Shown here: positions 17,260 to 47,648 of the stretch, one piece after another | Layout: each line of letters opens with the position of its first letter | Position numbering within the stretch: the first letter of the stretch is position 1 | NCBI GenBank assembly: GCA_965232615.1 | Contig: OZ246985.1 | Coordinates: 847,778-911,777, forward strand | Direction of reading: 5' to 3' | Origin: Spirochaetaceae bacterium | GTDB lineage: Bacteria > Spirochaetota > Spirochaetia > DSM-2461 | DNA: 64,000 nucleotides | Notes under the pieces: model-generated | What the model was told of the DNA's origin: nothing | Databases searched by the model: none | What the model saw: only the letters and a program-made list of their open reading frames with translations | Program-made: the position numbers and the translations under genes

Positions 17260-18171
17260 TCAAGCTTTGAAAAACTGGAAAGCCTTTGAATCGGTGCTGG
17301 CCTCAATGGGAGTGCTTCCAAAATTCTCTCCATCGGGAGTAAGGGCCATGGGACGTTCAGACTCCAGTTTTATATGATGACCACGGAATACTTCAAATTC
17401 GGGTGTCTCCAGATGGGCTCCAGTGAAAATTGTCGGCAACAGTTTCAATGCTCTAAACCTCGTGGTTTCTTTCATTACAACCACATCAAGTAAGCCATCA
17501 TCGATCTTTGCTGATGGAGCTATGAGCATATTTCCGCCTGTATACCGGGAGTTGCAGATTTCTACAAAGATGGCACGTCGTTCAATTATTTCATCGTCCA
17601 CCTGGAGCCGAATTGGAACAGGATCAAGATGGATAATTTCTTCAATAATACCGAAGACATAGCTCCTGGTGCCAAATAGCTTATACCTTGCTGATCGACG
17701 CGCGACATTAGAAACAAACCCCACCCCAAGGAGGTTGATGAAGTGGTAGTGGACAGAATCACAGGTAAACCACCCAAGGTCTACCAGACGGCATTCGCCC
17801 GCTATAATTGACTGAACAGCTACGTCCACAGAGGATATTCCCAAATCCCTGATATAGGAGTTGCCGGTTCCCACAGGAATTTGACCAATGGGAATGGAAA
17901 TTACAGATTTATCAGAGCACAGGCCGTTGAGAACCTCAAAAAGGGAACCATCTCCGCCCACAACAATGACACCAGACCAATCTGTCTGTTCGAGAGATTG
18001 GGCGATGGAAAGAGTATCACCTGGTTTTTCTGATATGAACATCTGTACGGACAAACCAGCATCATTCAACCGGGCAGCAGCGTTTTTAGCTGTTTGACGG
18101 CCAATTTTTCTACCAGCATTTGGATTGACAATCATTGCCAGTGGAACTTTCGATTTCATTGGGAATACCAC
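17260..18171 (-). CDS. lipid kinase, diacylglycerol-kinase catalytic domain (YegS/BmrU family)
   Basis: N-terminus IVNPNAGR and the GGDGS motif (VVGGDGSLFEVLNGL). Confidence 0.7.
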   Translation of the reverse strand: MVFPMKSKVPLAMIVNPNAGRKIGRQTAKNAAARLNDAGLSVQMFISEKPGDTLSIAQSLEQTDWSGVIVVGGDGSLFEVLNGLCSDKSVISIPIGQIPVGTGNSYIRDLGISSVDVAVQSIIAGECRLVDLGWFTCDSVHYHFINLLGVGFVSNVARRSARYKLFGTRSYVFGIIEEIIHLDPVPIRLQVDDEIIERRAIFVEICNSRYTGGNMLIAPSAKIDDGLLDVVVMKETTRFRALKLLPTIFTGAHLETPEFEVFRGHHIKLESERPMALTPDGENFGSTPIEASTDSKAFQFFKA

Positions 18172-18251
18172 CTGGAGTTTTCAGAAAGCATAGTCAATGA
18201 TAGGCTTCCTGACACTCCATACAGATATAGTTCCTGAATATGATTCTTATC

Positions 18252-20147: not shown

Positions 20148-20430
20148 ATTAACTCCTTAGTTTGTAACCACGGTGCAATCCTGAAATTCAGGTAATTGAG
20201 ATTGAGTGCACCGAACTGAATTGGATGTATTGTAAAGAGTTCTCCATAATTTCTTCCACCCCCTGGAGTCTCCAATGTGTAGAATACTTGTTATTTATCT
20301 GGATAATGACCTCCCGGACAGGGTTTTTTACTGTATCAGTGGAGTCTGGACACACTGACGATTGCCACTACATGAAACCTTCTCAGCATGCCGGTGGATT
20401 TCCAGTTCGCCGTAGAGAGAACCGTTATCG

Positions 20431-31010: not shown

Positions 31011-31433
31011 ATGAGACAGGTAATGGCGTCGGATCGGTTTTCAAACGGCCTGGAATTTGCCCTCGACCAATCAAGCGGGGTGCCGTACTACAGGCAAATC
31101 ATCAAACAGGTCGAGATGGCAATCGTCGATGGCCGACTGCGGCAGGGAGGACAGCTCCCAACAGTGCGAAGTCTGGCGGTGGTTTTGCAGATCAACCCCA
31201 ACACGGTAGCCCGGGCGTACAACGAGCTTGAGATTCGAGGCATCGTCAACACCCAACAGGGGACCGGCACCTTCATCAGCGATAAAACCATTGAACTGAC
31301 CGAGGAGGAACGGTCCAGGATACTGGATTCTCTCATACGGACCTTCCTGTCTAACGCGTCATCCTATGGTTTCGGTCTCAAAGAAATCGTTGAACAATTC
31401 AATGCTCTGAAGAAGGAGGAAAGGGATAAATGA
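31011..31433 (+). CDS. GntR-family transcriptional regulator, YtrA subfamily (short C-terminal domain)
   Basis: wHTH LPTVRSLAVVLQINPNTVARAYNELE. 140 aa. First gene of a tight 7-gene operon. Confidence 0.7.
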   Translation: MRQVMASDRFSNGLEFALDQSSGVPYYRQIIKQVEMAIVDGRLRQGGQLPTVRSLAVVLQINPNTVARAYNELEIRGIVNTQQGTGTFISDKTIELTEEERSRILDSLIRTFLSNASSYGFGLKEIVEQFNALKKEERDK

Positions 31434-32572
31434 AGGTATTCAAAAAATTAAAAGAAGGGCCCCCGGTTTCTGCCACTCACAGCCGCAGGCATTTTCACTA
31501 CAACGCAATATCCGCTCTGATGATCTTTGCGTCTCTGATTCTGGGACTTAGTCTGGAGTATGCCCTGTCGGCGAACATCAGTCAGGCGGAGGTGGGCTAC
31601 ATTGTCGCCGGGGTTATTTCGGCCATCGCGTTACTGTTTTTCCTGCCCTGGTGGCCAGTTGTGCTCACCATCGTGGCCGGGCTCTGGGCCGCTTCCATGG
31701 CATTGGGAACCGGCCTGATCGTATTTCCGGCCGTTGTGTCTTTGGGTTTTCTTATCACGCCGGGTTTCATGGTGGTGTCCCAGTGGGACAAGATTGTCGT
31801 TTTAAGACTTGGCCGCTTCCACGGGGTGAAGGGACCGGGTCTCATTTTTCTCGTTCCATTCATCGATACCGCTGCCGGAACCATTGATACCCGGATTCGT
31901 GTCACAGACTTTTCCGCCGAGAAAAGCCTGACTCTGGATACTGTTCCGGTTCACATCGACGCGCTGGCGTTCTGGATGATATGGGATGCCGGAAAAGCAG
32001 TTCTTGAGGTTCAGCACTTCGAAGACGCGGTGGTGCTCAGCGCTCAAACGGCCCTGCGCTCTACGATAGGCTCAAACAGTCTCACGGCACTTCTCAGCGA
32101 GAGAGAGCGTCTGGGGCGGGAGATACAGAGTATCGTTGACGCGAAAACCAACCCCTGGGGGATTACCATAATTTCTGTCGAGTTCAAGGAAATCCTTGTG
32201 CCCAGGGAGCTTGAGGACGTACTGAGCCGGGAGGCACAGGCCGAGCGGGAGCAGAAGGCACGGACTATTCTCAGTAAAACCGAGTCTGAAATATCCTCGC
32301 TGTACGAAAAGGCCGCCGAAGCCTATAAGAACAATCCGACAGCCCTGAGACTCAGGGCCATGAACATGATCTACGAAAGTATGAGGAACAAGGGCGGCCT
32401 GATTCTCACTCCGGCGTCCGCTCTTGAAACGATGAATCTGGGCTCTGTACTCGGCGCGGCAGCTTACGGTGCCAGTACCGGCCTTACCCCGGAGATTTTG
32501 CCGGCGATTGACTCTGAAGAAGATGGCAATTCGCCGGATGCAATACCGCAAGAAGAAGGAGAGAAAAAATGA
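31430..32572 (+). CDS. SPFH/band-7 (stomatin-HflK-like) membrane protein with multi-TM N-terminal extension
   Basis: SPFH core (VVLRLGRF...GPGLIFLVPFID) followed by a coiled-coil tail. Confidence 0.7.
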   Translation: MKVFKKLKEGPPVSATHSRRHFHYNAISALMIFASLILGLSLEYALSANISQAEVGYIVAGVISAIALLFFLPWWPVVLTIVAGLWAASMALGTGLIVFPAVVSLGFLITPGFMVVSQWDKIVVLRLGRFHGVKGPGLIFLVPFIDTAAGTIDTRIRVTDFSAEKSLTLDTVPVHIDALAFWMIWDAGKAVLEVQHFEDAVVLSAQTALRSTIGSNSLTALLSERERLGREIQSIVDAKTNPWGITIISVEFKEILVPRELEDVLSREAQAEREQKARTILSKTESEISSLYEKAAEAYKNNPTALRLRAMNMIYESMRNKGGLILTPASALETMNLGSVLGAAAYGASTGLTPEILPAIDSEEDGNSPDAIPQEEGEKK

Positions 32573-33246
32573 TTTCAGTTAAAGACCTCTACAAGACTTA
32601 TGCAACAGGAGACATGAAGGTACAGGCGCTTCAGGGCGTTTCGTTGGAGATCGACAGGGGGGAATTTATCGCTTTGGCCGGACCTTCCGGCTCGGGAAAG
32701 ACGACGATGCTCAACATCATCGGCTGTATAGATTCGGCTGATTCCGGCGAAGTCACCATTGCCGGACAATCGGTGATGAAACTCAAGAAGAACGAGCAGG
32801 CGATGTTTCGCCGGGACAACCTCGGATTTGTTTTTCAGAGTTACAACCTGATTCCGGTACTCACCGCGTTTGAAAACGTCGCTTTCAGCCTGAACCTGAT
32901 GAATGTCGATGACAGAGAAGTGCAGGAGAGAACCATGGCGATTCTCAAAGAAGTCGGCCTGGAGGGTATGGAAAATCGTCGGCCTGGAAAACTCTCCGGG
33001 GGTCAGCAGCAGAGAGTGGCGATAGCCCGGGCCATTGTCAAGGACCCGGAAATCCTTTTGGCGGATGAGCCCACAGCGAACCTCGATTCCAACACCGGAC
33101 AGGAGATTCTGGAATTGATGAAGGCACTCAACGAAAGGCATAAAAGCACCTTTATCTTCTCAACCCACGATCCCATGGTGATGGATTTTTCCAGTCGGCT
33201 CGTGCGGCTTCATGACGGCGTTATTCAGCACGATGAACGGAGGTGA
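32569..33246 (+). CDS. ABC transporter ATP-binding protein (MacB/LolD type)
   Basis: GPSGSGKTT, LSGGQQQR, LLADEP. 225 aa. Confidence 0.8.
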   Translation: MISVKDLYKTYATGDMKVQALQGVSLEIDRGEFIALAGPSGSGKTTMLNIIGCIDSADSGEVTIAGQSVMKLKKNEQAMFRRDNLGFVFQSYNLIPVLTAFENVAFSLNLMNVDDREVQERTMAILKEVGLEGMENRRPGKLSGGQQQRVAIARAIVKDPEILLADEPTANLDSNTGQEILELMKALNERHKSTFIFSTHDPMVMDFSSRLVRLHDGVIQHDERR

Positions 33247-33249
33247 AAG

Positions 33250-34494
33250 ATGTTTTTCATTCCTAAAATGGCTTTTTTGAATCTGGCCCGTTACAAGAAG
33301 CGAACCATGATTACCGCCGGGGCCATCGCCTACGGGCTGTTGATGCTTATCATCATGCGGTCTCTTCTTACCGGAATAGACTCCGAGTCAATTACGAATT
33401 TGCGGCTCTATGAAACCGCGACTGGACGCATCATGGTTCCAGGGTATTGGGAGGACAGGGAAACTTTTCCCCTGGAAAAATCCTTCGATCCCGCCATGAT
33501 CGAGCCCCTCCTCTCTGCATCCGGCGCCGGTTATTCCCCCAGGGTGAGTTTCGGCGGCGATTTAATCTTCTACAAAGATCCCTTCCCGGAGGACGGAAGC
33601 ATTCCGGGACTGTTCACTGCGATCGACCCCGTACAGGATGCCAACGTGTTCAAAATACAGGACAGCCTCGTCGAGGGTGAATGGCTGGTGGACGGTGAGC
33701 AGGGCCTGGTTCTTGGACATTGGCTTGCCGAAGATATCGGCGGCAGCATCGGCAGCACGGTGCTCGTCGAAACTCAAACCCGGGACGGTTACGCACAGGT
33801 GTTTGAACTGGAAATTGTGGGCATCATAAACTGCCCCAATCCCGAAATTACGCGCTCTGGTATGTTTCTTCCCCTGTCAATCGCCAACGAGTTCCTGGAA
33901 ATGGACGGTAAGGTAACGGAAATGAATGTGAATTACGGTGAAGATTCCTCCGCCGATACACGTTTCAGCGCCTTAAGCCGGGATATCGAGGCCCTCGGCC
34001 TGGAGGCTGTCGATTGGCGGGTTCTGGGGGAGGATTTTATTGCCATCTCCCAGACGAAAGCCGGCAGTTCATTCGTTCTCATTCTGCTTATTCTCATTAT
34101 TGCCGGCGTTGGGATATCCAATACCATGCTGATGGCTGTGTATGAACGCGTGAGGGAGCTGGGGATGATGAGAGCTCTCGGTATGAAAAATAATCAGATT
34201 CGCAGCCTGTTTCTCTGGGAGTCGGCGGGGATAGGCCTTCTCGGCGGCGTATACGGAGTTGGACTTGGTGCCCTGATAAACTGGCCGCTGGTGAAGTTCG
34301 GGATTGACTACTCCTTTCTTCTCCGGGAGTCCAACTTCGGTTACAGGATCCAGGGACAGATGTACGGGGCATGGGAGATTCCAACGATGATAGCCGCATT
34401 CTTAATGGGGGTGGGAATGGCCGTCCTGGTGGCCGCATTCTCCACGCATAGAATCCTGCGCCTGAACATCCCGGCCAGTCTGAGGTTTCAATAG
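33250..34494 (+). CDS. ABC transporter permease, FtsX/MacB/LolC-E family
   Basis: N-terminal TM, a large periplasmic domain and a C-terminal FtsX-type 3-TM bundle (RELGMMRALGMKNNQIRSLFLWE). Confidence 0.7.
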   Translation: MFFIPKMAFLNLARYKKRTMITAGAIAYGLLMLIIMRSLLTGIDSESITNLRLYETATGRIMVPGYWEDRETFPLEKSFDPAMIEPLLSASGAGYSPRVSFGGDLIFYKDPFPEDGSIPGLFTAIDPVQDANVFKIQDSLVEGEWLVDGEQGLVLGHWLAEDIGGSIGSTVLVETQTRDGYAQVFELEIVGIINCPNPEITRSGMFLPLSIANEFLEMDGKVTEMNVNYGEDSSADTRFSALSRDIEALGLEAVDWRVLGEDFIAISQTKAGSSFVLILLILIIAGVGISNTMLMAVYERVRELGMMRALGMKNNQIRSLFLWESAGIGLLGGVYGVGLGALINWPLVKFGIDYSFLLRESNFGYRIQGQMYGAWEIPTMIAAFLMGVGMAVLVAAFSTHRILRLNIPASLRFQ

Positions 34495-34501
34495 GAGGTG
34501 A

Positions 34502-35755
34502 ATGATGAAGCTTTATAAAATCGCTCTACGGAACATCCGCAGAAACAAACGGCGGAGTCTACTGTCCGCAACGGCTATTACCATTGCGGCATTTGCCATC
34601 GTTTTCCTTTTCGGCTTCCTTGCCGGAATGCTGAATGACATGGAGTCCAACCTCTGGACCTACATGACCGGCGCCGTCCGGGTGCGGCATTCGGAATTCG
34701 ACAAGTACGAACGCCTGAACCCCCTGCACCTGGCCATCCCCAACTACGAAGACTTACTGAAGGAGATTCAGGCCGACCCGGCAGTAACCGCGGTCAGTCC
34801 CAGGATCAATTTCCCTGGAAGGCTTCCTGTAGGAGGAATCGGCAGTGACAAAAAGGTTAATGTCATGGGTCTGGGGGTGGACTTCACCACCGAAGCGTCC
34901 TATCAGGATTACCGGCAAACCCTCGCCCTTGGGCGCTTGCCCCGGATGGGGACGCGCGAGGCATTGGTGGGACGCGTGCTGGCCGATAAGATTGACGTGA
35001 GTCCTGGAGACAAGTTTACAGTGCTCTCTCAATCAGGCTCCCGGGGCAGCAACGCCTACACCTTTACCGTTGTGGGCATACTCGCGCTGCCCCTTTCCGG
35101 CCTTGAAGCCGTCATGGTCCAGGCGCCCCTGGACACGGTACAGCGCTTCCTCTGGCTGCCGGATCAGGTACAAGAGATTCTGATCAAGATCGACCCAAAG
35201 ATTGATTCACCAAAGAAACTCGCCGCACGGCTGGGCAATGCACTGGAATCTAAGGTTCCGCTGAATGTCCGGGATTACAAGGAGGTGAACGGGATGGCAT
35301 CGATGATGGACCTGGCGTCCAGGATGTATGATATCATCGCGATTATCTTCTTCCTGCTGGCCAGCACAGTCATCATCAACACCACCATCATGGTGATTTT
35401 CGAGAGGATGAAGGAAATCGGGACTCTTGGTGCCATGGGTATGACAGGGAAGCAGTTGATGCGGCTCTTCTTCTTCGAGGCCCTGTTTATCAGCATGGCC
35501 GGGGCCATTGTCGGCATCCTTGGAGGTATCGCCCTTACCGGTTACCTCGGGAAGGTGGGCTTCTCCGCGATGGCGGACGCGATGAGAGGCATGGACACTG
35601 TGATGGGGCTAGGTTCGACCATCTACCCTGTTCTGAATTTCAAGTCAACCATAGGGGTGTTCCTGTACTCTCTGGCCGTTACCGGAGTGGCGACGTGGTG
35701 GCCGTCCAGGCGGGCGGCAAAGATAACGCCGGTTGAGGCGTTAAGGCATGTTTAA
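34502..35755 (+). CDS. ABC transporter permease, FtsX/MacB/LolC-E family (second copy)
   Basis: Same architecture (KEIGTLGAMGMTGKQLMRLFFFE). Confidence 0.7.
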   Translation: MMKLYKIALRNIRRNKRRSLLSATAITIAAFAIVFLFGFLAGMLNDMESNLWTYMTGAVRVRHSEFDKYERLNPLHLAIPNYEDLLKEIQADPAVTAVSPRINFPGRLPVGGIGSDKKVNVMGLGVDFTTEASYQDYRQTLALGRLPRMGTREALVGRVLADKIDVSPGDKFTVLSQSGSRGSNAYTFTVVGILALPLSGLEAVMVQAPLDTVQRFLWLPDQVQEILIKIDPKIDSPKKLAARLGNALESKVPLNVRDYKEVNGMASMMDLASRMYDIIAIIFFLLASTVIINTTIMVIFERMKEIGTLGAMGMTGKQLMRLFFFEALFISMAGAIVGILGGIALTGYLGKVGFSAMADAMRGMDTVMGLGSTIYPVLNFKSTIGVFLYSLAVTGVATWWPSRRAAKITPVEALRHV

Positions 35756-35773
35756 GGAGATAGGAGGAAAAAA

Positions 35774-36505
35774 ATGTTAAGAACTATTATGACCGGCCTG
35801 ATCACTATGGCTGCAGCATCGTCGCTTTTCGCGCAAAGCGCCGAAGAAATCATTCGGAAGATGGACGAGATGCAGACATTTGAGACCCTTTACAGCGAAG
35901 GAACGATGATCAGCGTTGACCGGTTCGGCGAAAAAAGAAGTACCTATAACGCGTGGTCGCGGGGGAGCACGGACTTCCTCATCGAATTTACCAACGTGGA
36001 AGAACGAGGGCAGAAGCTACTCCGGGTGGAGGACGAACTCTACCTCTTCTATCCGGATGCTGAAGACATCATTCCCATGCATGGAGCGGCGCTGAAACAA
36101 TCCTTGTTCGGGGATGTTTCCTATGAAGACATTACCGAGGGAAAGAACACCCTGGATAAATACAAAGTTTCGATAAAGGGGAGCCGGAATGTCGATGGTG
36201 TAGATTGTTGGGTTATAGAGATGATCGCGACCAGCCGGGATGTTCCCTATCCCAAACAAATTATACAGGTGGGAAAGGTCGATAACGTTCTCCGTGCCGC
36301 GGAGTACTATGCCAGGTCCGGGCGGCTACTCAAAATTGCCGATGTAAAGTCTTTTCGAGAATTCGACGATGGGCACGTCTTAATCACCGAAATGGAGCTG
36401 GCGGATCAACTTCGCCGAGGCTCCAGCACAAGAATGCGCATCGATACGGTGGAGGTCAATCCTGATCTTGACGACGATGTGTTTTCCCTGAGGTCTCTGT
36501 ACTAA
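35774..36505 (+). CDS. LolA-like outer-membrane-lipoprotein-sorting family protein (periplasmic)
   Basis: Signal peptide. Recalled similarity to the outer membrane lipoprotein-sorting protein family that co-occurs with FtsX-type ABC systems. Confidence 0.45.
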   Translation: MLRTIMTGLITMAAASSLFAQSAEEIIRKMDEMQTFETLYSEGTMISVDRFGEKRSTYNAWSRGSTDFLIEFTNVEERGQKLLRVEDELYLFYPDAEDIIPMHGAALKQSLFGDVSYEDITEGKNTLDKYKVSIKGSRNVDGVDCWVIEMIATSRDVPYPKQIIQVGKVDNVLRAAEYYARSGRLLKIADVKSFREFDDGHVLITEMELADQLRRGSSTRMRIDTVEVNPDLDDDVFSLRSLY

Positions 36506-36506
36506 T

Positions 36507-37721
36507 ATGAAGACCTTAAGACGCCGCTTTGCGTGTCTGTTTCTCCTGGGAAGTCTACTTACTTCCTACCTGGCGGCTGAGAGCGAAACCCGGGCCAATC
36601 TTCAGCTCTATAACACCGTATATCGCGGCAAAGGGACCAACTGGTACTATGGCGCCACCGGCCTGGCCGATCTCCGTTTCGCCTCCACGGGAAACAAAAA
36701 CATGAAGGCCCAGGTCGCGGTGGAATTCATGCCCAGGGACATCGCCGGCGGCGGTGGGTCGTCGGCTCCGGCGGTATCGCTGAAAAGGCTGTGGATAAAG
36801 GCGAACTTTCCCTCATGGCGACTCACCGCCGGCAAAACCAGGGTGACCTGGGGAAATGGTTTCGTTTTCAATTCCGGTGATATTCTCTTCGGCAGTCTGT
36901 CCCCCTATCTGAATTTCACCCAGTCGACGGTGAGAGATGATACGGCATTTCTCACCTCCCTGAACTTTCCCCTCGGGCAATTCAGCTATCTGGAAGCCAT
37001 CGTACTGCCCCCGGACCTGGTGCAAGACAGCCTGACAGGAAATTTTGCTTTCCAATCCATCGACCATATTTCGGGGGGAGTACGCTTCTTCTTTCGAATC
37101 AAAGGTTTCCGCCTGGAAGGCGGCTACCTTTACAAGGGTGATAAGAAGGTTACGAATGACATGCTGGGCCATCGGCCTTACCTGTCATTTCACGGCCACG
37201 CGGGGGTGGATTTCTATGGCGCGGTTTCCCTGGCGGCCGGTTACGATTCGAGCCTGAGGGGGGATCAGCACAGGGATACCTGGGACGAAATTTCCCGAAC
37301 GGTGAATATCAGCCTTGGTGCCTTCCACCAGTTTCAGGTCGGCTATGACGGCACCCTCTCGTTTCGTCTGGAAGCCCTCATCATGCCCTGGCAGAACTGG
37401 AATTCCCAGGATTTCACGGAAATCCTGGCCGGTTCGGCCTACGGTATCATGATTTATCCCATGATGAGCTGGAATTTCCGGTCCTCCTGGACCATTACGC
37501 TCCAGTCGGTTATCTCACCAGTGGATGCCTCCGCCCAGGTGACCGGCAGTGTGGGCTGGCAGGTGTTCCAGGGCTTCACTCTCCTTGGATATGTCAGCGC
37601 CAGCATTGGTGGTGAACAGTCCCTGTTCGCCTGGGACCGAACAGGCGCATGGCCGGAATCATGGCCGGAAGACCGTCCCAATGGGATGAGTTTTACTCTG
37701 GGAGGACGGTATAGTTATTAG
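36507..37721 (+). CDS. putative outer-membrane beta-barrel protein (unknown family)
   Basis: Signal peptide, alternating amphipathic beta-like segments and a C-terminal ...GGRYSY aromatic terminus. Confidence 0.35.
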   Translation: MKTLRRRFACLFLLGSLLTSYLAAESETRANLQLYNTVYRGKGTNWYYGATGLADLRFASTGNKNMKAQVAVEFMPRDIAGGGGSSAPAVSLKRLWIKANFPSWRLTAGKTRVTWGNGFVFNSGDILFGSLSPYLNFTQSTVRDDTAFLTSLNFPLGQFSYLEAIVLPPDLVQDSLTGNFAFQSIDHISGGVRFFFRIKGFRLEGGYLYKGDKKVTNDMLGHRPYLSFHGHAGVDFYGAVSLAAGYDSSLRGDQHRDTWDEISRTVNISLGAFHQFQVGYDGTLSFRLEALIMPWQNWNSQDFTEILAGSAYGIMIYPMMSWNFRSSWTITLQSVISPVDASAQVTGSVGWQVFQGFTLLGYVSASIGGEQSLFAWDRTGAWPESWPEDRPNGMSFTLGGRYSY

Positions 37722-37926: not shown

Positions 37927-38295
37927 TTATCCCATGCCTAACAGCTTGAAAATAGTACTTAACACCTTATCCGCTTCAAAGGGTTTAACAATGAAATCCT
38001 TTGCCCCTAAGGAAAGTGCTTCAAAAACCTGCTTCTTCTGACCGACGGCACTCACAATAACTATACGAGCTTCAGAATTATGCTGTATCATCTTTTTAAG
38101 AGTTTCAATTCCATCCATTTTCGGCATGGCAATGTCAAGTGTTACAAAGTCAGGGTTGTGAATTTTGAAATTTGCAAGACCATCCACACCATTGACAGCT
38201 TCGCTTACGATCTCAAAATGTGGTCCCAGAATATCCCTCAACCTCATCCTCATCACTGCCGCGTCATCAACAATCATCCCCTTATACATGCTCAA
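37927..38295 (-). CDS. cheY: single-domain response regulator CheY
   Basis: 122 aa receiver domain (DD...D...K pattern: IVDDAAVMR, DIAMPKMDG, KPF). Confidence 0.8.
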   Translation of the reverse strand: MSMYKGMIVDDAAVMRMRLRDILGPHFEIVSEAVNGVDGLANFKIHNPDFVTLDIAMPKMDGIETLKKMIQHNSEARIVIVSAVGQKKQVFEALSLGAKDFIVKPFEADKVLSTIFKLLGMG

Positions 38296-38767
38296 CCTCT
38301 GAAACCTGACTCTGTAGTGCCAGATTCAACTCCAATTCACCAATAATGGAATTAAAAGATAGAAAAACTGCCGGAATACCATCAATATCAAGGTTTCTTC
38401 CTGGATGAGTAATAATGGAAGGAGTCGTGATTTTAATCAGCTTATCATCTCCAGCCAAACCGATGCTGGCCTGACCTGTTATCATATTGGCAAGCTCACA
38501 GACCGCACTCTGGACCATCTCCTGTACCTCATGGGGCTGTTTTTTACCTGTCATGGCAGTGGCAACAGAATATGCAAAATCCCAATCCATTGAATAGATC
38601 ACCTGTCCGTATATGGGACCTTTTATACCAATGAGAATTGAAACCGGCATGGAAGATTGAGTATTTTTTTTTCTGCCAATACCACTTCTCTCCAAATTGA
38701 TATGTATTTCCTTGTCAAATATCAATTTTGCACTATTAACAAAGAAATTGATATACTCGTATCTCAT
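38282..38767 (-). CDS. cheX: CheY-P phosphatase CheX
   Basis: 161 aa of CheX/CheC-like fold. Overlaps cheY and follows the kinase gene. Confidence 0.65.
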   Translation of the reverse strand: MRYEYINFFVNSAKLIFDKEIHINLERSGIGRKKNTQSSMPVSILIGIKGPIYGQVIYSMDWDFAYSVATAMTGKKQPHEVQEMVQSAVCELANMITGQASIGLAGDDKLIKITTPSIITHPGRNLDIDGIPAVFLSFNSIIGELELNLALQSQVSEVEHV

Positions 38768-38782
38768 CCAGTCACCATATCC

Positions 38783-40522
38783 TTACTGAAATGGTACAAA
38801 CATACTGATCGAGGTTCCCTTGTCTATGGCTGTTTCTATTGATAATCTGCCTTTCAATCTATCGATCTCAGTCTTTACAGCCCAGAGCCCAAGCCCCCTG
38901 CCTGAAATTTCTGTCAGGTTTTCTGCTGTCGAAAAATCTCTTAAAAAAAGTAATCCCAACACCTCATCGGAGTTATAGATTTTATCATCGGAAAGAATCC
39001 CTTTACGCCTGCCAATGGCTTCAATATCCTGTACAGAAATACCTCTGCCGTCATCAATGAAGCTGATTTCCATGCCATCATGATGCACTTTAATATCGAT
39101 AAAAACCTCCCCCTGATCGGGTTTATTCTTCTTCTTTCTCTCCAGAGGAGTTTCAATACCATGATCAATCATGTTTCTCACCAGATGCGCAAAAGTACAT
39201 AGCAAATCATCGTAGATTTCAGGCAGAATCTGGATATCGTCCCCTCTAATCTCAAGAGGTTTAACTTCCTTGCCCAGAGACTTCGCCAGTCTCTGGCTCA
39301 TGGGAGGGTATGGAGCCAGCAAGGCATGTAGAGAAATTCTTCTGAACTGTTGAACAGATCCAAAAATCTCATTATCACTACCATATTTTTTCGCGATAGA
39401 CTCCTCTAACTGGAGGTAATGGTGGTATGGAATAGAGACCTGGTCAATTCTGTTCAGCCATTGTTCGCCAAACAAATTCAGTACAATACCTGACTCATCC
39501 TTATATGCTTTCTTCAAGGAACTGGCCTGGGAAGGGATGTCGATTGTTTCATTACAGGCAATTTTACCGGATATATAGTTCTCAAAATCATTCGCGGCAG
39601 TATGTGTTGCTTCAAATGCGAAAAAAGAAGCGCTCCCCTTAAATGTATGAATCATTCTCTGAAGGGTTTCGTAATCCTTATTCTCCACTTTTTCCAACCT
39701 GCTGAAAGTTTGAAAGACTTCCTCGGCCTCCTTCAGGAAAGAGGAGAAAAATTTCTGGTGAGACAATATCTGAAAGACCATATTTCTGAGTTTCTCTTCT
39801 TTTTCCTCTTTTTCCTTCAACAGTAACTGGAGGGTAATATCTGTCATAATACCAAGAACTTGAATCCTGTCGATCATCCTGTATTCAATCTCTATGGTTC
39901 TATTGTTAATAATGATTTCCCTGTCCATCAGCTTAAAAACAACATCGGCCTTACTGATATCAGTGAAGAGAAGTGAAAACCCATCGATGAACTCTTCCTG
40001 TTTCCTCTTAGTGCTGAATAGAAGCTCTGGAAGAAAGAGTCCAACAGGTTTTTTATTGAAGATTTCCTCGCATTTTCGTGAATAATTCTCCTTAACAACA
40101 AAGTCTGCTCCAAACAGAAAAAATCCCTGACCAGTAACATCAAGCATGTTCTTGATTTTACTGGTCCGTTCCTGAACCAGTTTTTCAAGGTTTACGTTTA
40201 TCTCCTGCAAATTATCCTGCCGTACTCCGATCATCCGGGCAAACCAGCCCAGAAAAAATGGTGCCGAGCTTATAATGGAAAAAAGAATCCAGGGATTGTT
40301 CGGGAAAAATGAAATAACAAAGAGTGCGATAAGGGGAAAAAGAAATCCAAAGGATATTCCATAAATCAAGTATTTTTTCGTGTAATTTGACAGCATTCTC
40401 AGTATATTGAAGCGTATTATCCTATTTAAATCAAGGTCTGTGATCCTGACAATAAAGATCCCTGTCCAGTATAGGAGACGACACCAGAAAATATGGCAAT
40501 TCCATGTATTTGAAATCAACAA
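38783..40522 (-). CDS. membrane-anchored CheA-like histidine kinase (TM region, PAS-like region, HPt domain, CheA-type P4 kinase domain; no P5/CheW domain)
   Basis: HPt motif HTFKGSASFF. P4 motifs HLVRNMIDHGIE, DDGRGI and GRGLGLWAV. The protein ends right after P4. The probable true start is MLSNYTKKY at about 40396. Confidence 0.65.
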   Translation of the reverse strand: MLISNTWNCHIFWCRLLYWTGIFIVRITDLDLNRIIRFNILRMLSNYTKKYLIYGISFGFLFPLIALFVISFFPNNPWILFSIISSAPFFLGWFARMIGVRQDNLQEINVNLEKLVQERTSKIKNMLDVTGQGFFLFGADFVVKENYSRKCEEIFNKKPVGLFLPELLFSTKRKQEEFIDGFSLLFTDISKADVVFKLMDREIIINNRTIEIEYRMIDRIQVLGIMTDITLQLLLKEKEEKEEKLRNMVFQILSHQKFFSSFLKEAEEVFQTFSRLEKVENKDYETLQRMIHTFKGSASFFAFEATHTAANDFENYISGKIACNETIDIPSQASSLKKAYKDESGIVLNLFGEQWLNRIDQVSIPYHHYLQLEESIAKKYGSDNEIFGSVQQFRRISLHALLAPYPPMSQRLAKSLGKEVKPLEIRGDDIQILPEIYDDLLCTFAHLVRNMIDHGIETPLERKKKNKPDQGEVFIDIKVHHDGMEISFIDDGRGISVQDIEAIGRRKGILSDDKIYNSDEVLGLLFLRDFSTAENLTEISGRGLGLWAVKTEIDRLKGRLSIETAIDKGTSISMFVPFQ

Positions 40523-40571
40523 CAGCGCCTATGATTGACACTTGCACAGGCATTAAACAAGATACAATTCA

Positions 40572-41675
40572 ATGAATGAAAAAATCAATGTGGGGATACT
40601 CTGTGGAGGACGTTCCTGCGAACACGAAGTCTCGGTTGCTTCCACCCGTTCCGTTCTGGACGCTATCAACCGAGACAAATACAACATTACTCTTATTGGA
40701 ATATCAAAAAAAGGCCAGTGGCTGACCCCTTCCGGAGATGCCTTGAAACTTCTCCAGGGTGGTACAGTTGAGAAAGAAGATAATCATTCAGTCATATTAG
40801 ATTATTCCGGTTCCAGAAAATTGTTGACCCCTGAAACATTGCAATCACTCAGCCAGCCCATTGATGTGCTTTTCCCCCTGCTCCATGGTCCATTTGGCGA
40901 AGATGGCACTGTTCAAGGTTTACTTGAACTATCCGGCATACCCTATGTAGGATCCGGTGTGACAGGATCTGCTGTTGGCATGGACAAGGAAATGATGAGG
41001 CGCGTGTTTCGATCGGAAAACCTGCCCCAGGTGAATTACACAGTTGTTACCCGCAAAAGGTGGGAAGCCTGCCCGGAAGAAGTTCAGCATGACACAGAAA
41101 AACAACTCACCTATCCACTTTTTATAAAACCTGTCAATTCGGGTTCATCGGTGGGTGTCAGCAAAGTACACAATTCCAGTGAGTTCACCGGGGGAATGGA
41201 TGAAGCCTGCAGCTTTGACTACAAGGTGATGATAGAAGAAGAAGCAGCCAACTGCCGTGAAATTGAAGCCGCAGTTCTTGGAAATGAAACTCCGGAATCA
41301 GCATCAACCATAGGCGAGATTGTTCCCCATAACGATTTTTATGACTACGAAGCCAAGTATACCGAAGGCAGCACAGAGTTAATAATTCCAGCTCGAATTT
41401 CCCCGGAAACCATGGCTGAGATACGAAAAATAGCCATCACGGCATTCAAAACCATAGGTGCGGCTGGTCTGGCCCGTGTGGATTTCTTCGTCCGCAAAGA
41501 TGATGAGGCCATTTTCCTCAACGAGATAAACACTATGCCAGGCTTCACACCGGTTAGCATGTATCCCCAACTCTGGACTGAATCAGGTGTGTCCTACACA
41601 GAACTCATCGACCGCCTGATTCAATACGCCCTTGAGTATCATAGCACCAGACAAAACATACGTGTCGTTCTTTAA
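40572..41675 (+). CDS. ddl: D-alanine--D-alanine ligase
   Basis: 367 aa with an ATP-grasp fold, N-terminus VGILCGGRSCEHEVS and the C-terminal FLNEINTMPGFT motif. Confidence 0.85.
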   Translation: MNEKINVGILCGGRSCEHEVSVASTRSVLDAINRDKYNITLIGISKKGQWLTPSGDALKLLQGGTVEKEDNHSVILDYSGSRKLLTPETLQSLSQPIDVLFPLLHGPFGEDGTVQGLLELSGIPYVGSGVTGSAVGMDKEMMRRVFRSENLPQVNYTVVTRKRWEACPEEVQHDTEKQLTYPLFIKPVNSGSSVGVSKVHNSSEFTGGMDEACSFDYKVMIEEEAANCREIEAAVLGNETPESASTIGEIVPHNDFYDYEAKYTEGSTELIIPARISPETMAEIRKIAITAFKTIGAAGLARVDFFVRKDDEAIFLNEINTMPGFTPVSMYPQLWTESGVSYTELIDRLIQYALEYHSTRQNIRVVL

Positions 41676-41683
41676 CCAGTACT

Positions 41684-42082
41684 ATGGCAGTTCGTTCTAT
41701 AAAAAAGCACATGGTAACCCAGATGACACACTACCTGTTTCTTCTTCCCTTCCTGCCAGGAATTCGTTCACTGATCACAAGGCACAGTACCTCTGATATC
41801 ATGATTTACTTCTCTGGTTTGTTTCTCGTGCTTATGTTGATTATTTTCAGCAATCATAAACCTTTATTGAAAATGGAAGAAACCCGGATTTCCCTCTACC
41901 TCAACCACCGTCGTACAGTCACATATCTTCCCTACAAAGAAATATATGCCTACAGGAAGCTGTCATCAGACCGTATCAGAGTTCTTTCTCAATACCATCA
42001 TCCCGTCAATCTTTACATTGGCAGAAAAGATATGAAACATCTTGTAGACAAACTCCAGGAGATGAACATTGCGATGCAGTAG
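41684..42082 (+). CDS. hypothetical small membrane protein (possible bacterial PH-like domain)
   Basis: Two TM helices then about 70 aa soluble. No recognisable motif. Confidence 0.3.
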   Translation: MAVRSIKKHMVTQMTHYLFLLPFLPGIRSLITRHSTSDIMIYFSGLFLVLMLIIFSNHKPLLKMEETRISLYLNHRRTVTYLPYKEIYAYRKLSSDRIRVLSQYHHPVNLYIGRKDMKHLVDKLQEMNIAMQ

Positions 42083-43034
42083 AACTGTATTCTTCTCAGG
42101 AATGATCATCATTGCGTCGGCATTGTTAACCTCCTGTAAGGAAGAAAAGGTGCTGCTAACGGAGCACCAGATATCTCTGCTGAATAAGTGGCTTGATTCA
42201 TCTTATCAGACTCCGGCAGAGCGCATAATTCAGGAATTCCAGCAAGGCCGCTCCGTTATACTTGCCCAGGATATGATTCTCCGTGGAGATACCGTAGATC
42301 TTGTCCGCTCCCTGGTACCTCTATTCTACAGTCTTGGAATAAGAAACATCGGACTGTATCAATTTAACACAACCAGCCAGAAAGAACTGGACTGGTATTG
42401 CCGTGATGCCAATCCCGGCCAGAATGATGCTATCAGCTCACCCATGCCATTTCTGGCATACATCGAATACAGAGAGTTCCTGGATTATATTAAAGACTTG
42501 AACAACCATAAGAAGCTTGGGGAAGAAGCCATCAATATCATAGCTCTGGGTGAACGGGGAAGCATCTCTTCCCCCAGAGTCAATCAACTTCTGGAGGAAG
42601 AAAACTGCTTTTTATGGCTGAAATCTACCGATCTTGCATCAATACCACATACAGAAACTGATGAAGTGAAACCCCTTGTTCTTTTACATCACGGTCCTGG
42701 ACCTGATGGTTTGATCTGGAATGAACTGATACTGCATACAAGAAATCAGCGGCCATTAAGAGATGCCACTTTTGCCTTCAACCCGGATACTCCGCCATTT
42801 CACCTCTGGAAATACAATCATCCTGCAAAACCGGACATTGTTATCGTCACAGTTTTTCCATATCGTGCTGTTACCACAGTACCTGGTTACTTAACCAGAG
42901 ATATTACTGATGAAGTGTTGGCAAATTTCCCTGAGATCCAAATTCGCAACCCTCAGAATCTGCTACCATCTCGATTGAACAGGATTGTATACCGGCAGGT
43001 GAAGCGGTATGCTCGATCCCTGAGAAACTTTTAA
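42069..43034 (+). CDS. hypothetical lipoprotein
   Basis: Signal peptide plus lipobox LLTSC. 321 aa with no confident family assignment. Confidence 0.4.
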   Translation: MRCSRTVFFSGMIIIASALLTSCKEEKVLLTEHQISLLNKWLDSSYQTPAERIIQEFQQGRSVILAQDMILRGDTVDLVRSLVPLFYSLGIRNIGLYQFNTTSQKELDWYCRDANPGQNDAISSPMPFLAYIEYREFLDYIKDLNNHKKLGEEAINIIALGERGSISSPRVNQLLEEENCFLWLKSTDLASIPHTETDEVKPLVLLHHGPGPDGLIWNELILHTRNQRPLRDATFAFNPDTPPFHLWKYNHPAKPDIVIVTVFPYRAVTTVPGYLTRDITDEVLANFPEIQIRNPQNLLPSRLNRIVYRQVKRYARSLRNF

Positions 43035-43042
43035 ATACGGCT

Positions 43043-43918
43043 CTAATGAATTCTGAAATTCTCCAGCCCCAGCAATTCAAAAATCCGCAATACCGCGAGG
43101 GAATTGTTCAAGGTGTAAAGATGGATACCGGGAACACTGCTATCCAATAAATCCCTTACCTGTTCGGCTGCCCAGTGTATACCTGCCTTGCATACACCCT
43201 CATCGGATTCTGCCCATTTGACAGCCCGAAGCAATCCGGCCGGGAATCGGGATCGTGGCGCCAGTTTCGCCATTCTTTCCATGTTATGAATTCCGGAAAT
43301 CGGCATTATTCCTGCAATGACAGGTATGTTAATACCTGCGATTGCACACCTTGAGACATAATCAAAATAATCCCTGTTATCAAAAAAAAGTTGAGTAACC
43401 ATATAATCGGCTCCGGCATCAACTTTGCTCTTTAGATGCGTCATCTCATCAAGACGGTTTAACGAATCAGGATGCCCTTCCGGAAAACCGGCCACACCAA
43501 CTCCCATCTCCGGATGCTGATTGCGGATGAAGGACACCAGTTCAGCGGCATGGGAAAAGTCCCCCTGTATGGAAGTGGTATCAGCAGGCATATCACCTTT
43601 GAGAGCCAGGATATTTCTCACGCCACTTTCGGCATATTCATCAAGGATTTCCCTGATTTCATCCTGTGTATGGCTGACACAGGTGAGATGGGCCACGACA
43701 TCAACACCTGTCAATTGTTGTATTTTTGTAACGAGTTGGTGAGTGAGAGACCGTGTAGATCCGCCTGCACCATATGTAACACTCACATAGGTTGGTTTGA
43801 GATGGGTCAGATCTTCTATAGTCCGGAATAGCTTTTCTTCTCCCTTTGGGGACTTAGGCGGAAAGAATTCAAAACTTACCGCTGTTTTCTGTGAGGTTAA
43901 CAGGTCAATAATCGGCAT
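43043..43918 (-). CDS. metF: 5,10-methylenetetrahydrofolate reductase
   Basis: 291 aa TIM-barrel MTHFR (FEFFPPK, SVTYGAGGS). Confidence 0.8.
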   Translation of the reverse strand: MPIIDLLTSQKTAVSFEFFPPKSPKGEEKLFRTIEDLTHLKPTYVSVTYGAGGSTRSLTHQLVTKIQQLTGVDVVAHLTCVSHTQDEIREILDEYAESGVRNILALKGDMPADTTSIQGDFSHAAELVSFIRNQHPEMGVGVAGFPEGHPDSLNRLDEMTHLKSKVDAGADYMVTQLFFDNRDYFDYVSRCAIAGINIPVIAGIMPISGIHNMERMAKLAPRSRFPAGLLRAVKWAESDEGVCKAGIHWAAEQVRDLLDSSVPGIHLYTLNNSLAVLRIFELLGLENFRIH

Positions 43919-43924
43919 ATGCTG

Positions 43925-44359
43925 CTACTTCTGAAGATTGATCAATGCATGGATTGCCAGAATGTAGCTGTGTTTTCCAAAACCAAAGATCCCCCCCTCA
44001 CAAACTGGAGCTATTACTGAAGAATGACGGAATTCTTCCCGTTTATATAAATTGGAAAGATGCACTTCTATAACAGGGATCCGGACTGCGGCAACGGCAT
44101 CACGAATGGCATGTGAATAGTGGGAGTATGCAGCAGCATTGAGTATAATACCATCAAGTCGATCATTTCCCTTCTGTATCAAAGTGATGAGTTCCCCTTC
44201 GGAGTTTGACTGATGAAACTCCAGCTCTATGCCGAGCTTATCACCTTCAGCAGCAACTTCTTTGTTGATTTCGTCTAGAGTCTGGTTGCCGTAAATGTGT
44301 ATTTCCCTTTGACCAAGCATGTTAAGATTCGGACCATTGATAACCGATATTCGCTTCAT
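43925..44359 (-). CDS. aroQ: type II 3-dehydroquinate dehydratase
   Basis: 144 aa with I(N)GPNLNMLGQRE and HLSN motifs. Confidence 0.8.
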   Translation of the reverse strand: MKRISVINGPNLNMLGQREIHIYGNQTLDEINKEVAAEGDKLGIELEFHQSNSEGELITLIQKGNDRLDGIILNAAAYSHYSHAIRDAVAAVRIPVIEVHLSNLYKREEFRHSSVIAPVCEGGIFGFGKHSYILAIHALINLQK

Positions 44360-44936: not shown

Positions 44937-45911
44937 ATGGCCGCGTTATCAAAAAGACTCTGGCTAATTATAACCAAACTGCCAGGTCATGCCGTTGAAG
45001 GCCTTCGACGGTTGCTTAAAGAAGGACCAGAAGCCCTATCTGGAAATGATTTCAAAATCACTCGAACTCTACCGCATGGTCATGCCGTTGCCATCCTCAA
45101 GGTTATGAAAGATCTTGATATTCCTCGGTTAATTTCCTCCCGCCGAACTCCCGAACGTAATTTGATTATCGCCCTTATTGCCCAACGTATTCTTCATCCA
45201 CAATCGAAACTGGCCACTTTTTAAGAGGGGCAAGCTACAAATTGAAGTGGGTCTTCTTTGTGACTCAGAAGGACGTCCTGTGGGGGTTGAAGTCTTTGAA
45301 GGCAACACAGCCGATCCGATGACGGTTTCCAGCCAGATTGAAAAACTCCGAAATCGCTTCGGTCTTGAACGGATCACAGTGGTCGGTGACCGAGGAATGC
45401 TAACTGAAGCGAGCATTGACAGGGAAATCCGGAAGAACTCTCTGACGAAAAGGTTGTATTTGCGTACAAACGGCTCTCCAGCGTTGAACAGGCATTTCGC
45501 TACATAAAGTTGGTGGACTTGAAGCTACGGCCCGTTTATCACCGCCTGGAGGACAGGGTTCGGGCGCATGTATTGGTTTGTATGCTTGCCTACTATGTTG
45601 AATGGGAAATGCGGAAACGGATGGCTCCCATTCTCTTTGAAGATGAAGCTTCTGCCATTGAAAGGGAGAAGAAAAAGAAATCCATCGTTTCTCCTGCGGA
45701 AAAATCTGGTAAAGCCCTGGCGAAAGCATCAACAAAACAAACAGACGATGGAGAACTCGTCCATAGTTTCCGAACGGCGTTAAATTGTCTTGCGACTATT
45801 TGCCAAAACACAATTGAATTCGATTGTAAAGAATCCGCATCCTTCACGCGGATTACAGAACCAGTAAACCATCAAAGAGTAATCCTGAATCTTTTGGGGG
45901 TCAGTATGTAG
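44937..45911 (+). mobile_element. degraded IS1634-family (IS4 superfamily) transposase pseudogene, C-terminal part in 3 frames
   Basis: The fragment ...RVRAHVLVCMLAYYVEWEMRK... is a hallmark of IS1634-type transposases. The frame is broken at least twice and the N-terminus is missing. The insert has inverted ends agactgaagtttt(a/t)a. Confidence 0.6.
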
Positions 45912-46481: not shown

Positions 46482-47648
46482 TCAGCGTGGTAGCTCGGTG
46501 CCTTCATTCATAATTCGGATGTATTCTACATAGGAATAGAGACGGTTTCGCTTCTGGCCGGACACCTCCTTGACAATGCCAATCTGCTCCAATTTACGCA
46601 GGCACGCGTTGACGGTTGCTGGTGAAAGTTGGGCCTTTTCCTGAATCCAATTGGGAGAGGCCATCGGTCGTTCCAGCATCGCTTTGTGAATCAGGTGTGC
46701 CGAGCCGGAAATACGCTTCAGTCCATTAATCCGCTGGCCATCCTTAGCTGAAAGCCTCATCAATTGTTGAGCTGTATCCACCGCCTGAGTTGCGGTGTGA
46801 ATAACCGCATCGGCAAAGAAATGCAGCCATGCCTCCCAGTTACCAGTCAAGCGGACCTCATTCAGCAGCTCATAGTACTGCTGCCGATGAGTCTTGAAAT
46901 ATAAACTCAGGTAGAGCATGGGTTCCTTCAATACCTTCTCAGAACAAAGCAATAAGGTAATTATCAGACGGCCAAGACGCCCGTTACCATCGAGAAACGG
47001 GTGGATTGTTTCAAACTGAACATGCGCCAATGCCGCTTTGATTAGAACCGAGGTCTTTTCCGGCTGGTTGTGTAAAAACAGCTCCAGCTTATCCATGCAC
47101 TCCTGAACATATTCCGGAGGCGGAGGAACGAACGCCGCTGTACCGGGGAGACTGCCACCAATCCAGTTCTGGCTTCTGCGAAACTCCCCCGGATCGCACT
47201 CCTTACCACGCCCCTTTGACAGAAGGACGCTGTGAATCTCTTTCAGCAATCGGAGTGAGATTGGGAAATCATCATACAACCGCTTCAAGCCATGGTTCAA
47301 CGCCGCCACATAATTACTGACCTCCTGCACGTCATCAAGCGGCACACCGGGTTGATGTTCAAATTCAAATAGCAGCAAATCTGAAAGGGAGGACTGAGTT
47401 CCCTCGATCATTGAGGAAAGCACCGCTTCTTTGCGCACATATATGTAAAGGAAGAGCGAAGTGTCCGGCAGCAATACCGAAACGCTGTCCAGACGACCAA
47501 GAGCCAGCAGGGCCTTATCAAATTTATCCCGGAGCTCTGATGACCACTCAATCAGTGGCGTTGGGGGCAACGGAGCCGGAACAAAGGCTTGTGCTTTTTC
47601 CCCAACGGTCGAAATGGTTATGTAATGGCCTTGTAGATCACGGTTCAT
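46482..47648 (-). CDS. fic: Fic-family AMPylase/adenylyltransferase, class II (N-terminal inhibitory S-x3-E-G motif), C-terminal winged-HTH
   Basis: Fic motif HPFLDGNGRLGR. Inhibitory motif SSMIEGT upstream. wHTH-like C-terminus. Confidence 0.8.
   Translation of the reverse strand: MNRDLQGHYITISTVGEKAQAFVPAPLPPTPLIEWSSELRDKFDKALLALGRLDSVSVLLPDTSLFLYIYVRKEAVLSSMIEGTQSSLSDLLLFEFEHQPGVPLDDVQEVSNYVAALNHGLKRLYDDFPISLRLLKEIHSVLLSKGRGKECDPGEFRRSQNWIGGSLPGTAAFVPPPPEYVQECMDKLELFLHNQPEKTSVLIKAALAHVQFETIHPFLDGNGRLGRLIITLLLCSEKVLKEPMLYLSLYFKTHRQQYYELLNEVRLTGNWEAWLHFFADAVIHTATQAVDTAQQLMRLSAKDGQRINGLKRISGSAHLIHKAMLERPMASPNWIQEKAQLSPATVNACLRKLEQIGIVKEVSGQKRNRLYSYVEYIRIMNEGTELPR

Follow-up and report, generated by a model that had tools for sequence, protein, structure and literature searches.

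A 64,000-nucleotide stretch of a Spirochaetaceae bacterium genome (contig OZ246985.1, positions 847,778 to 911,777; hereafter the window) carries three co-directional minus-strand open reading frames (ORFs), spanning 40522..37927, that encode in order a sensor kinase, a CheX-type phosphatase and a single-domain CheY. CheA is the textbook example of a kinase that is unable to sense by itself and is switched by receptor arrays through its P5 domain and CheW. The kinase of this trio retains the P1 and P4 domains of CheA, ends without a P5 domain, and is accompanied, here and in other spirochaetes, by its own response regulator and phosphatase. We consider it probable that the three genes are one operon and that their products make up a phosphorelay of the class III histidine kinase (HKIII) type, which would work without receptors. 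A sequence-only reading of the locus had proposed a self-contained phosphorelay that bypasses arrays of methyl-accepting chemotaxis proteins (MCPs) and CheW, and this proposal is supported by the CheA-type P4, the P1-type histidine phosphotransfer (HPt) domain, the missing P5, and the lack of cheW and mcp genes in the window.

The kinase-cheX-cheY locus

The features of the locus, in window coordinates, are:

40522..38783, minus strand: kinase ORF as listed mechanically, 579 amino acids (aa) from a TTG start at 40522
38783..40396, minus strand: predicted P5-less CheA-type (HKIII-like) sensor kinase, 537 aa (Pfam Hpt and HATPase_c; starts of homologues)
38282..38767, minus strand: CheX-type CheY-P phosphatase, 161 aa (Pfam CheX 3.1e-16, CheC 6.6e-08)
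38295..37927, minus strand: CheY ORF as listed mechanically
37927..38289, minus strand: single-domain CheY, 120 aa (Pfam Response_reg 3.2e-26; gene-caller start)
40397..40571: divergent intergenic region between the kinase gene and ddl, 175 bp, with weak promoter-like hexamers for the trio

The start of the kinase is ATG 40396 (Met43 of the ORF) and not TTG 40522, which gives a protein of 537 aa. In the alignment eleven homologues, of 25-93% identity, start at or near Met43, with homologues of 537-555 aa beginning at that residue, and the matching 42-codon upstream extension of a 93%-identical relative contains two in-frame stops. Kinase residue numbers below count from Met43 unless the ORF is named. 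The most likely start of CheY is ATG 38289, where gene callers put it.

The sequence-only reading placed genes for CheX and a single-domain CheY downstream of the kinase, and the Pfam matches listed above agree. Its description of the junctions as ATGA-type overlaps was inaccurate: cheX and cheY share an 8-nt overlap, ATGTATAA, in which the cheY start lies over the cheX stop, and the cheX ATG follows the kinase stop after a 15-nt gap. Tight spacing and conserved order argue for co-transcription of the three genes as one operon. Minus-strand promoter-like sites lie at 40444-40416 and 40430-40401 in the divergent intergenic region. An Rfam scan found no RNA family near the trio.

Are receptor genes close by? 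Searches by tblastn with an MCP signalling domain, CheW, canonical P5 and PilT gave no match in the window or in any locus that carries the trio. The MCP, CheW and PilT queries were hand-written sequences; the P5 query, as a control, matched 64 of 65 canonical cheA loci in the same scan. The earlier observation that no cheW or mcp is adjacent thus extends to the whole 64 kb, and the window has no flagellar or che genes other than the trio.

Domains of the kinase and its partners

A model of the kinase was built with AlphaFold2 on the family alignment, with a mean predicted local distance difference test (pLDDT) score of 82. Together with profile searches it suggests the order membrane anchor, long helix, PAS-like fold, P1-type HPt, degenerate P3 remnant and P4; there is no P2. 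The segments, all on the minus strand, are:

40217..40387: membrane anchor, aa 4-60, putative transmembrane helix 1 (TM1) and a weaker TM2 joined by a loop of ~5 residues, PNNPW (AlphaFold2, hydropathy)
39839..40126: PAS-like fold, aa 91-186, predicted to be cytoplasmic, within the conserved family core (AlphaFold2, pLDDT ~90)
39470..39835: P1-type HPt helical bundle, aa 188-309 (Pfam Hpt 6e-08; PDB matches to CheA P1)
39332..39469: putative degenerate remnant of P3, the dimerisation domain, aa 310-355 (profile alignment to Thermotoga maritima CheA)
38786..39331: CheA-type P4 ATP-binding domain with N, G1, F and G2 boxes, aa 356-537 (PDB CheA P4, ~1e-29)

The motifs HTFKGSASFF, HLVRNMIDHGIE, DDGRGI and GRGLGLW, quoted in the sequence-only reading, are all found in the kinase. 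On the 579-aa ORF Pfam detects Hpt at aa 259-320 (6e-08) and HATPase_c at aa 445-578 (1.7e-14). The NCBIfam CheA models align with the kinase at its P3/P4 part only; that of Escherichia coli CheA matches over positions 331-523 of 670 at 3e-28, far under the full-length cut-off. The significant PDB relatives are likewise confined to CheA P3P4 or P4 fragments (T. maritima 4xiv 1.6e-30, 1i5d 2e-29), and a family-profile search raises the T. maritima CheA match to E 3e-55. For CheA P4 structures the match is E 2e-29 by sequence and 1e-53 by family profile. The profile matches two separate parts of full-length E. coli CheA, namely P1 and P3P4. In the model P4 forms an alpha/beta ATP-binding domain at aa 356-535, and Foldseek places T. 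maritima CheA P3P4 on top, CheA P4 (1i5d, 6mi6) having a template-modelling score (TM) of ~0.9.

Might this be a two-component sensor kinase of the ordinary HisKA type, its likeness to CheA being superficial? The layout of anchor, helix, PAS, helical bundle and ATPase does superpose on YF1 (4gcz), but such PAS-histidine kinases resemble the whole chain only loosely in Foldseek. There is no HisKA match, an HPt with an HxxKG motif is present, and CheA P4 matches reach 1e-30 to 1e-55, whereas classical kinases do no better than 1e-8. On this domain evidence we reject the HisKA reading, to which we assign next to no probability, and the earlier assignment of the catalytic domain to the CheA type stands.

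The HPt bundle is equally CheA-like. By family profile its best HPt-type PDB matches are the CheA P1 structures 1tqg (3e-06), 1i5n and 2ld6, ahead of non-CheA HPt proteins. The predicted phospho-acceptor is His250, in HTFKG (codon 39647-39649). Every homologue in the range of 25-93% identity keeps H250, K253 and E272 as well as all P4 boxes, and the spacing of the three residues (+3/+22) equals that of His48, Lys51 and Glu70 in E. coli CheA.

That the kinase ends directly after P4, with no P5/CheW domain, was claimed from the letters and is confirmed. Pfam finds no CheW domain in the kinase even at E<=1, and the P4 alignment reaches the second-to-last residue, so that the protein stops 2 residues past P4. 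Because the cheX ATG is only 15 nt beyond the kinase stop, no P5 is hidden by a frameshift. Pfam H-kinase_dim is also not detected in the kinase at E<=1, though the Pfam P3 model has low sensitivity (PMC10782961). Towards the N-terminus the family profile still aligns with most of T. maritima P3 (1b3q from residue 10, 4xiv from residue 14), but the modelled helices over this segment are short and broken (aa 311-316, 324-338 and 342-352), and we therefore call it a degenerate remnant.

The PAS-like region fares less evenly. An alpha/beta PAS-type fold does appear in the model, with strands at aa 91-95, 100-105, 160-163, 166-174 and 180-186; Pfam detects no PAS domain in the kinase. A Pfam Glyco_hydro_57 match in the same region (E 0.0085, under the cut-off) was taken as noise. 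The first helix of the fold (YSRKCEEIF) holds Cys109 (window ~40070-40072), which is near-invariant in homologues of 25-93% identity.

The modelled helices of the anchor run from aa 4-30 (TM1) and aa 35-88 (TM2 plus the long stalk). The hydropathy of TM1 is strong, with its peak at aa 17-25, and that of TM2 is moderate, the hand-calculated mean of ~1.3 being under the usual 1.6 threshold. Across the same range of homologues TM1 has invariant G13-x3-G17, F20 and P21 (window ~40334-40360). G-x3-G is a classical helix-packing motif, and here it may contribute to dimerisation or intramembrane signalling. The invariant GxxxG..FP and the near-invariant Cys109 are candidate sensing or dimer-contact sites. 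Under either topology the outer loop would be just PNNPW, and a periplasmic sensor domain or ligand site appears to be excluded.

Both partners look active, with the catalytic motif and residues intact. CheX matches T. maritima CheX (1squ/1xko) at 2e-10 and Borrelia burgdorferi CheX in the CheX-CheY3 complex (3hzh) at 3e-10. Its S87-AVC-E91-LA-N94 (S87-x3-E91-x2-N94) aligns with the SAIGELGN active site of T. maritima CheX and with B. burgdorferi CheX, agrees with the S/D-x3-E-x2-N motif of the CheC/CheX/FliY family (the Pfam CheC match is a CheC-like stretch), and is kept in all trio orthologues. CheY is closest to T. maritima CheY (5e-29, 45% identity) and archaeal CheYs, the match to B. burgdorferi CheY3 being weaker (4e-20). 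It keeps D8, D9, D52, S80, F99 and K102. The segment VSAVGQK..GAKDFI(V/I)KPF, which we take to be the alpha4-beta5-alpha5 face of CheY, is near-invariant among trio orthologues.

Conservation of the trio and the P5-less lineage

The kinase-cheX-cheY trio is kept in six other spirochaete contigs, with unrelated flanks each time. This supports the view of the trio as an autonomous cassette. The loci, some in metagenome-assembled genomes (MAGs), and the identity of each kinase to that of the window are:

L001, 3.0-Mb contig: 93%
L084, metagenome: 45%
L085, metagenome, contig ending after cheX: 38%
L002, Salinispira sp.: 37%
L082/L083, Spirochaetota MAGs: 36%
L003, Treponemataceae MAG: 31%

In all of these cheX lies directly downstream of the kinase gene, and cheY is kept wherever the contig reaches past cheX (that of L085 ends before). 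Protein identities co-vary across the loci, at 31-93% for the kinase, 42-92% for CheX and 54-97% for CheY. The flanks vary among sugar kinases, 2-oxoglutarate dehydrogenase, peptidases and Opp transporters.

Other P5-less kinases have other arrangements. The gene order is CheX-response regulator-kinase in a proteobacterial MAG and response regulator-kinase in Desulfolutivibrio, and some of the kinases are orphans. On a JGI metagenome contig (L090, 8622-11046) a P5-less HAMP-Hpt-HATPase_c kinase is followed by response regulator-CheZ-response regulator-CheZ, a duplicated pair with CheZ and not CheX. In a Symbiobacteriaceae MAG (L004, 2708-5410) two genes precede the P5-less kinase, one for a response regulator of 271 aa whose C-terminal extension is uncharacterised and one for a cNMP-binding/sigma-54-AAA/patatin fusion protein; this unusual neighbourhood may hint at a non-motility output.

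How widespread are such kinases? Among the best 120 database matches to the kinase, a sample picked by similarity to the query, P5 is absent from 83, and the other 37 are canonical CheAs with P5. A neighbour-joining tree of the P4 domains, made without bootstrap, splits the 83 from the 37 perfectly. The P5-less proteins end no more than 21 aa past P4 or carry a tail of ~160-180 aa in place of P5. Six P5-less relatives have a CheX domain fused C-terminally where P5 would be, in the order sensor-Hpt-HATPase_c-CheX with dCache, CHASE4 or HAMP inputs; in two other tailed relatives precomputed Pfam gives a receiver (REC) domain, which would explain the tail. A phmmer search with canonical P5 matched neither the 83 P5-less relatives nor 144 sampled representatives of the wider search described next. 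PF02895 occurs in none of the listed P5-less relatives and in nearly all of the P5-containing matches.

The non-P4 half of the kinase (aa 1-355) was also searched against 1.84 billion representatives of 50%-identity clusters. It matched 1,928 representatives at E<=1e-3, 665 at E<=1e-10 and 50 at E<=1e-30. Since most of these matches cover query aa ~60-354, the stalk, PAS-like fold, HPt and P3 remnant together form a conserved core and not a variable sensor. In the 144 sampled representatives P4 follows the core in 135, P5 is found in none, and 120 end no more than 30 aa past P4. The region N-terminal of the core has a median length of 270 aa and a maximum of 1,459 aa, and is minimal, as in the window kinase, in 21; relatives place dCache, CHASE4, HAMP, GAF, PAS or 7TMR-DISM modules ahead of the same core. 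Full-length relatives, among the matches listed, come from Spirochaetota, Bdellovibrionota/Oligoflexia, Myxococcota, Planctomycetota, Bacillota, Desulfobacterota and Pseudomonadota. Profiling of the architecture thus finds it well beyond this genome, as the trio in spirochaetes and as P5-less relatives in many phyla.

Could the kinase instead be what remains of a CheA from a canonical cheA-cheW-cheX-cheY operon, truncated or decayed and without function? The order of the trio resembles that of spirochaete che operons, and nowhere in the window is GC lower than in the trio region (0.407). The catalytic motifs, however, are all intact and invariant, orthologues down to 31% identity keep both length and partners, and the P5-less proteins form a separate clade in a family of hundreds of clusters. 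Conservation and domain evidence effectively refute the truncation reading, which we rate as very improbable. The P5-less kinases appear instead, from their sequences, to be a lineage of their own comprising hundreds of clusters.

The surroundings of the trio show several features of their own. The low-GC trio region (38001-40000) has a strongly negative GC skew of -0.166 and contrasts with an adjacent GC-rich block of ~6.7 kb at 31011-37721, between cheY and an opp operon, in which GC is 0.53-0.54 against ~0.41-0.47 around it. This block encodes a GntR regulator, an SPFH/Band-7 protein, an ABC ATPase with two FtsX-type permeases, a LolA_like/TP_0789-like protein and a 404-aa protein without a Pfam match. 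In L001 cheY directly abuts the opp genes without the block, which therefore looks like an inserted island. Gene order also differs from L001 at 14420-22521 and 40572-44359. In L001 the genes for RNR, DAGK, PEPCK and acyl-CoA synthetase adjoin those for DHquinase and MTHFR and ddl; in the window the opp operon, the island and the che-like trio separate the two groups. We therefore suspect an inversion or rearrangement, one end of which may lie near 44.4-46 kb. At the suspected breakpoint (44937-45911) a single gene, possibly for a transposase, seems to have decayed into frameshifted pieces: three short ORFs of 95, 109 and 133 aa follow one another in different frames and match no Pfam family. 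Just past these degraded ORFs, at 46482-47648 on the minus strand, is a gene for a Fic/DOC-family protein (Fic_N plus Fic) with a C-terminal winged-helix domain.

Proposed pathway and comparison with known systems

How might the cassette work? In the scheme we propose, a hairpin without a periplasmic domain would tether the kinase to the inner membrane, and the long helix and cytoplasmic PAS-like fold would control the CheA-derived catalytic unit. The kinase would dimerise through the conserved GxxxG transmembrane helix and the long helix. P4 would use ATP to phosphorylate His250 in the adjacent P1-type HPt bundle, and the phosphoryl group would then move to Asp52 of the single-domain CheY. 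CheA-type kinases are without the intrinsic phosphatase activity of DHp-type kinases, and for this reason we look to CheX for the off-reaction; through its E91/N94 site it would strip the phosphate from CheY-P and set the lifetime of the signal. Kinase and CheX would together fill, as separate modules, the role of a classical sensor kinase that is bifunctional, an equivalence that would be literal in the fusions with CheX at the P5 position. One protein would thereby stand in for MCP, CheW and CheA.

Where would the stimulus act? The candidates are the conserved PAS-like fold, with its near-invariant Cys109, and the conserved TM1. The sequence-only reading had the membrane domain of the kinase itself do the sensing; we find this doubtful, and it is one possibility only. 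The anchor is a hairpin with an outer loop of ~5 residues and no periplasmic domain, and the PAS-like fold sits in a core common to hundreds of relatives that have other N-terminal sensor modules.

What does CheY-P bind? Our best guess is a target connected with motility. Given a spirochaete host, we rate the flagellar switch as slightly likelier than the type IV pilus target proposed for HKIII in general, though still at less than an even chance. With a flagellar output, the cassette would be an extra, receptor-free input whose CheY-P binds FliM/FliN beside the canonical CheY of the F2 system, so that a cytoplasmic or membrane cue, for example redox or energy state read through the PAS-like fold, would bias swimming. 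We hold this to be quite possible, if short of evenly balanced. The CheY is most similar to motor-binding CheYs, that of T. maritima ahead of B. burgdorferi CheY3, and the presumed alpha4-beta5-alpha5 face is near-invariant; canonical Treponema operons run cheA..cheX-cheY, the same order as the trio, and the nearest named relatives of this uncultured member of the Spirochaetia are Spirochaetales and Spirochaetaceae MAGs, a group that is usually motile. PEPCK of the window is 84-87% identical to proteins of such MAGs and of other contigs, with 84% for the closest named matches, and ~73% identical to Sphaerochaetaceae proteins, a level that Clostridiales and Chitinispirillaceae also reach. A non-motile Sphaerochaeta host, with which a flagellar output would have been excluded, was rejected on these values, and the Sphaerochaeta genome paper (PMC3372971) does not apply here. 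Likeness to CheY does not identify a target, however, the 64-kb window has no other flagellar or che genes, and HKIII systems are reported, in the paraphrase given in PMC6501615, from genomes without chemotaxis genes.

It is possible, but in our estimation rather unlikely, that CheY-P binding controls type IV pilus motility or a surface or envelope process. The published HKIII proposal takes this direction from the reported co-occurrence of pilT in all HKIII genomes (paraphrased in PMC6501615), which is a correlation only. In the loci examined the trio never adjoins flagellar or che genes, and full-length relatives occur in Bdellovibrionota, Myxococcota, Oligoflexus and Bacillota, which we take to be pilus-rich. 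Against this, tblastn found no pilT-like gene in the window or in any trio locus, and type IV pili are uncommon in Spirochaetia.

A stronger proposal is that the minimal spirochaete form is a complete array-free chemotaxis-style pathway, in which a membrane or cytoplasmic cue reaches the periplasmic-flagellar switch through a second CheY. We regard this proposal as doubtful, more so than either output considered by itself. If it were true, the P5-less lineage would be an overlooked major branch of CheA, present in many phyla, with CheX and CheZ as interchangeable off-switches and with the PAS-like fold, not P5, gating the kinase. If the cassette does act on the flagellar motor, spirochaete motility, which in pathogenic relatives is a virulence trait, would gain an input that depends on no receptor.

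The phosphorelay proposed here matters mainly because it offers a tractable way to study how CheA chemistry can be controlled without arrays. The P5-less lineage keeps the P1/P4 chemistry of CheA and would have it gated by its own input modules, and is therefore a natural experiment on array-free control of P4-P1. At 537 aa the spirochaete kinase is roughly the most compact form, and it should lend itself to biochemical and structural study. P5-less kinases are recurrently linked to a separate off-switch: CheX, as a fusion at the P5 position or as the product of a neighbouring gene, or else CheZ. In annotation, neither 'CheA' nor a bare 'ATP-binding protein' is an apt label for such kinases. 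What is new here is the spirochaete-wide minimal three-gene version, the PAS-like/HPt/P3-remnant block as a conserved core, the fusion of CheX at the P5 position, the CheZ-linked variants, and a family size and spread beyond those reportedly described before.

The known system that the trio most resembles is HKIII, a class already described computationally. Adebali and colleagues reportedly described these kinases in 2017 as having sensory domains and no dimerisation domain; their partners are said to be a single-domain regulator and CheX, often with an unorthodox soluble chemoreceptor that is optional, and their phyletic distribution is said to be 'narrow'. The architecture of the trio appears to fit this class as so described: an input region, CheX and a single-domain regulator are all present in the window. 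As in HKIII, the input region is fused to an HPt and a CheA-like kinase domain without CheW/P5, standard models detect no dimerisation domain, and the genes lie outside che clusters. The window trio differs from HKIII in its spirochaete host and in a minimal kinase with only a membrane hairpin before the conserved core, and the P5-less family found here is large and spans many phyla, in contrast to the narrow distribution reported for HKIII. The sequence-only reading allowed that the architecture might belong to a well-characterised family; the family has reportedly been described computationally, as HKIII, and a literature search found no experimental study of any member of the P5-less family. 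A literature search for a CheA without the P5/CheW domain, or for a membrane-bound or transmembrane CheA, found nothing relevant.

Several points weigh against the reading of the trio as one operon of HKIII type. The window kinase has a recognisable segment derived from P3, although HKIII reportedly have no dimerisation domain, and the soluble chemoreceptor often found with HKIII is absent, by tblastn, from the vicinity of the window trio and from every trio locus. The membrane topology of the kinase is not certain, as TM2 is only moderately hydrophobic. Operon status is judged from gene spacing alone, and promoter and terminator scans around the trio gave counts no higher than in shuffled sequence.

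Berry, Andrianova and Zhulin (2023, PMC10782961) characterise CheA as having four invariable core domains and no sensor domain; they found a CheW domain in 100% of CheAs, and in their account the combination of HATPase_c with CheW 'uniquely distinguishes' the protein. The kinase lacks that CheW domain and therefore should not be called CheA. With canonical CheA (T. maritima 1b3q, 4xiv; E. coli 6s1k) it nevertheless shares a P1-type HPt with the His/Lys/Glu residues and a P4 that is ~30-35% identical, at TM ~0.9. As in canonical CheA, phosphotransfer in the proposed scheme would be to CheY, and a separate phosphatase would be needed. It differs in having no P5/CheW and no P2, a vestigial P3, and a membrane anchor and PAS-like input of its own.

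The spirochaete F2 operon, cheA-cheW-cheX-cheY (B. burgdorferi 3hzh; Treponema loci L012, L025 and L074), is like the trio in using CheX and not CheZ and in the order kinase, cheX, cheY. Unlike that operon, the trio has no cheW between its genes, its CheX is only ~30% identical to canonical Treponema CheX, and its CheY is nearer to T. maritima CheY than to B. burgdorferi CheY3. The trio is not part of the F2 array system described in PMC7666581. A last comparison is with the F1 CheA-CheC/CheX fusions of the Leptospirae, which have been proposed as dual kinase/phosphatases (Berry et al. 2023, PMC10782961). These fusions, like the trio, combine kinase and phosphatase in one unit, but they keep P5 and work with receptors, whereas the fused P5-less relatives have CheX at the P5 position and the cheX of the window is a separate gene.

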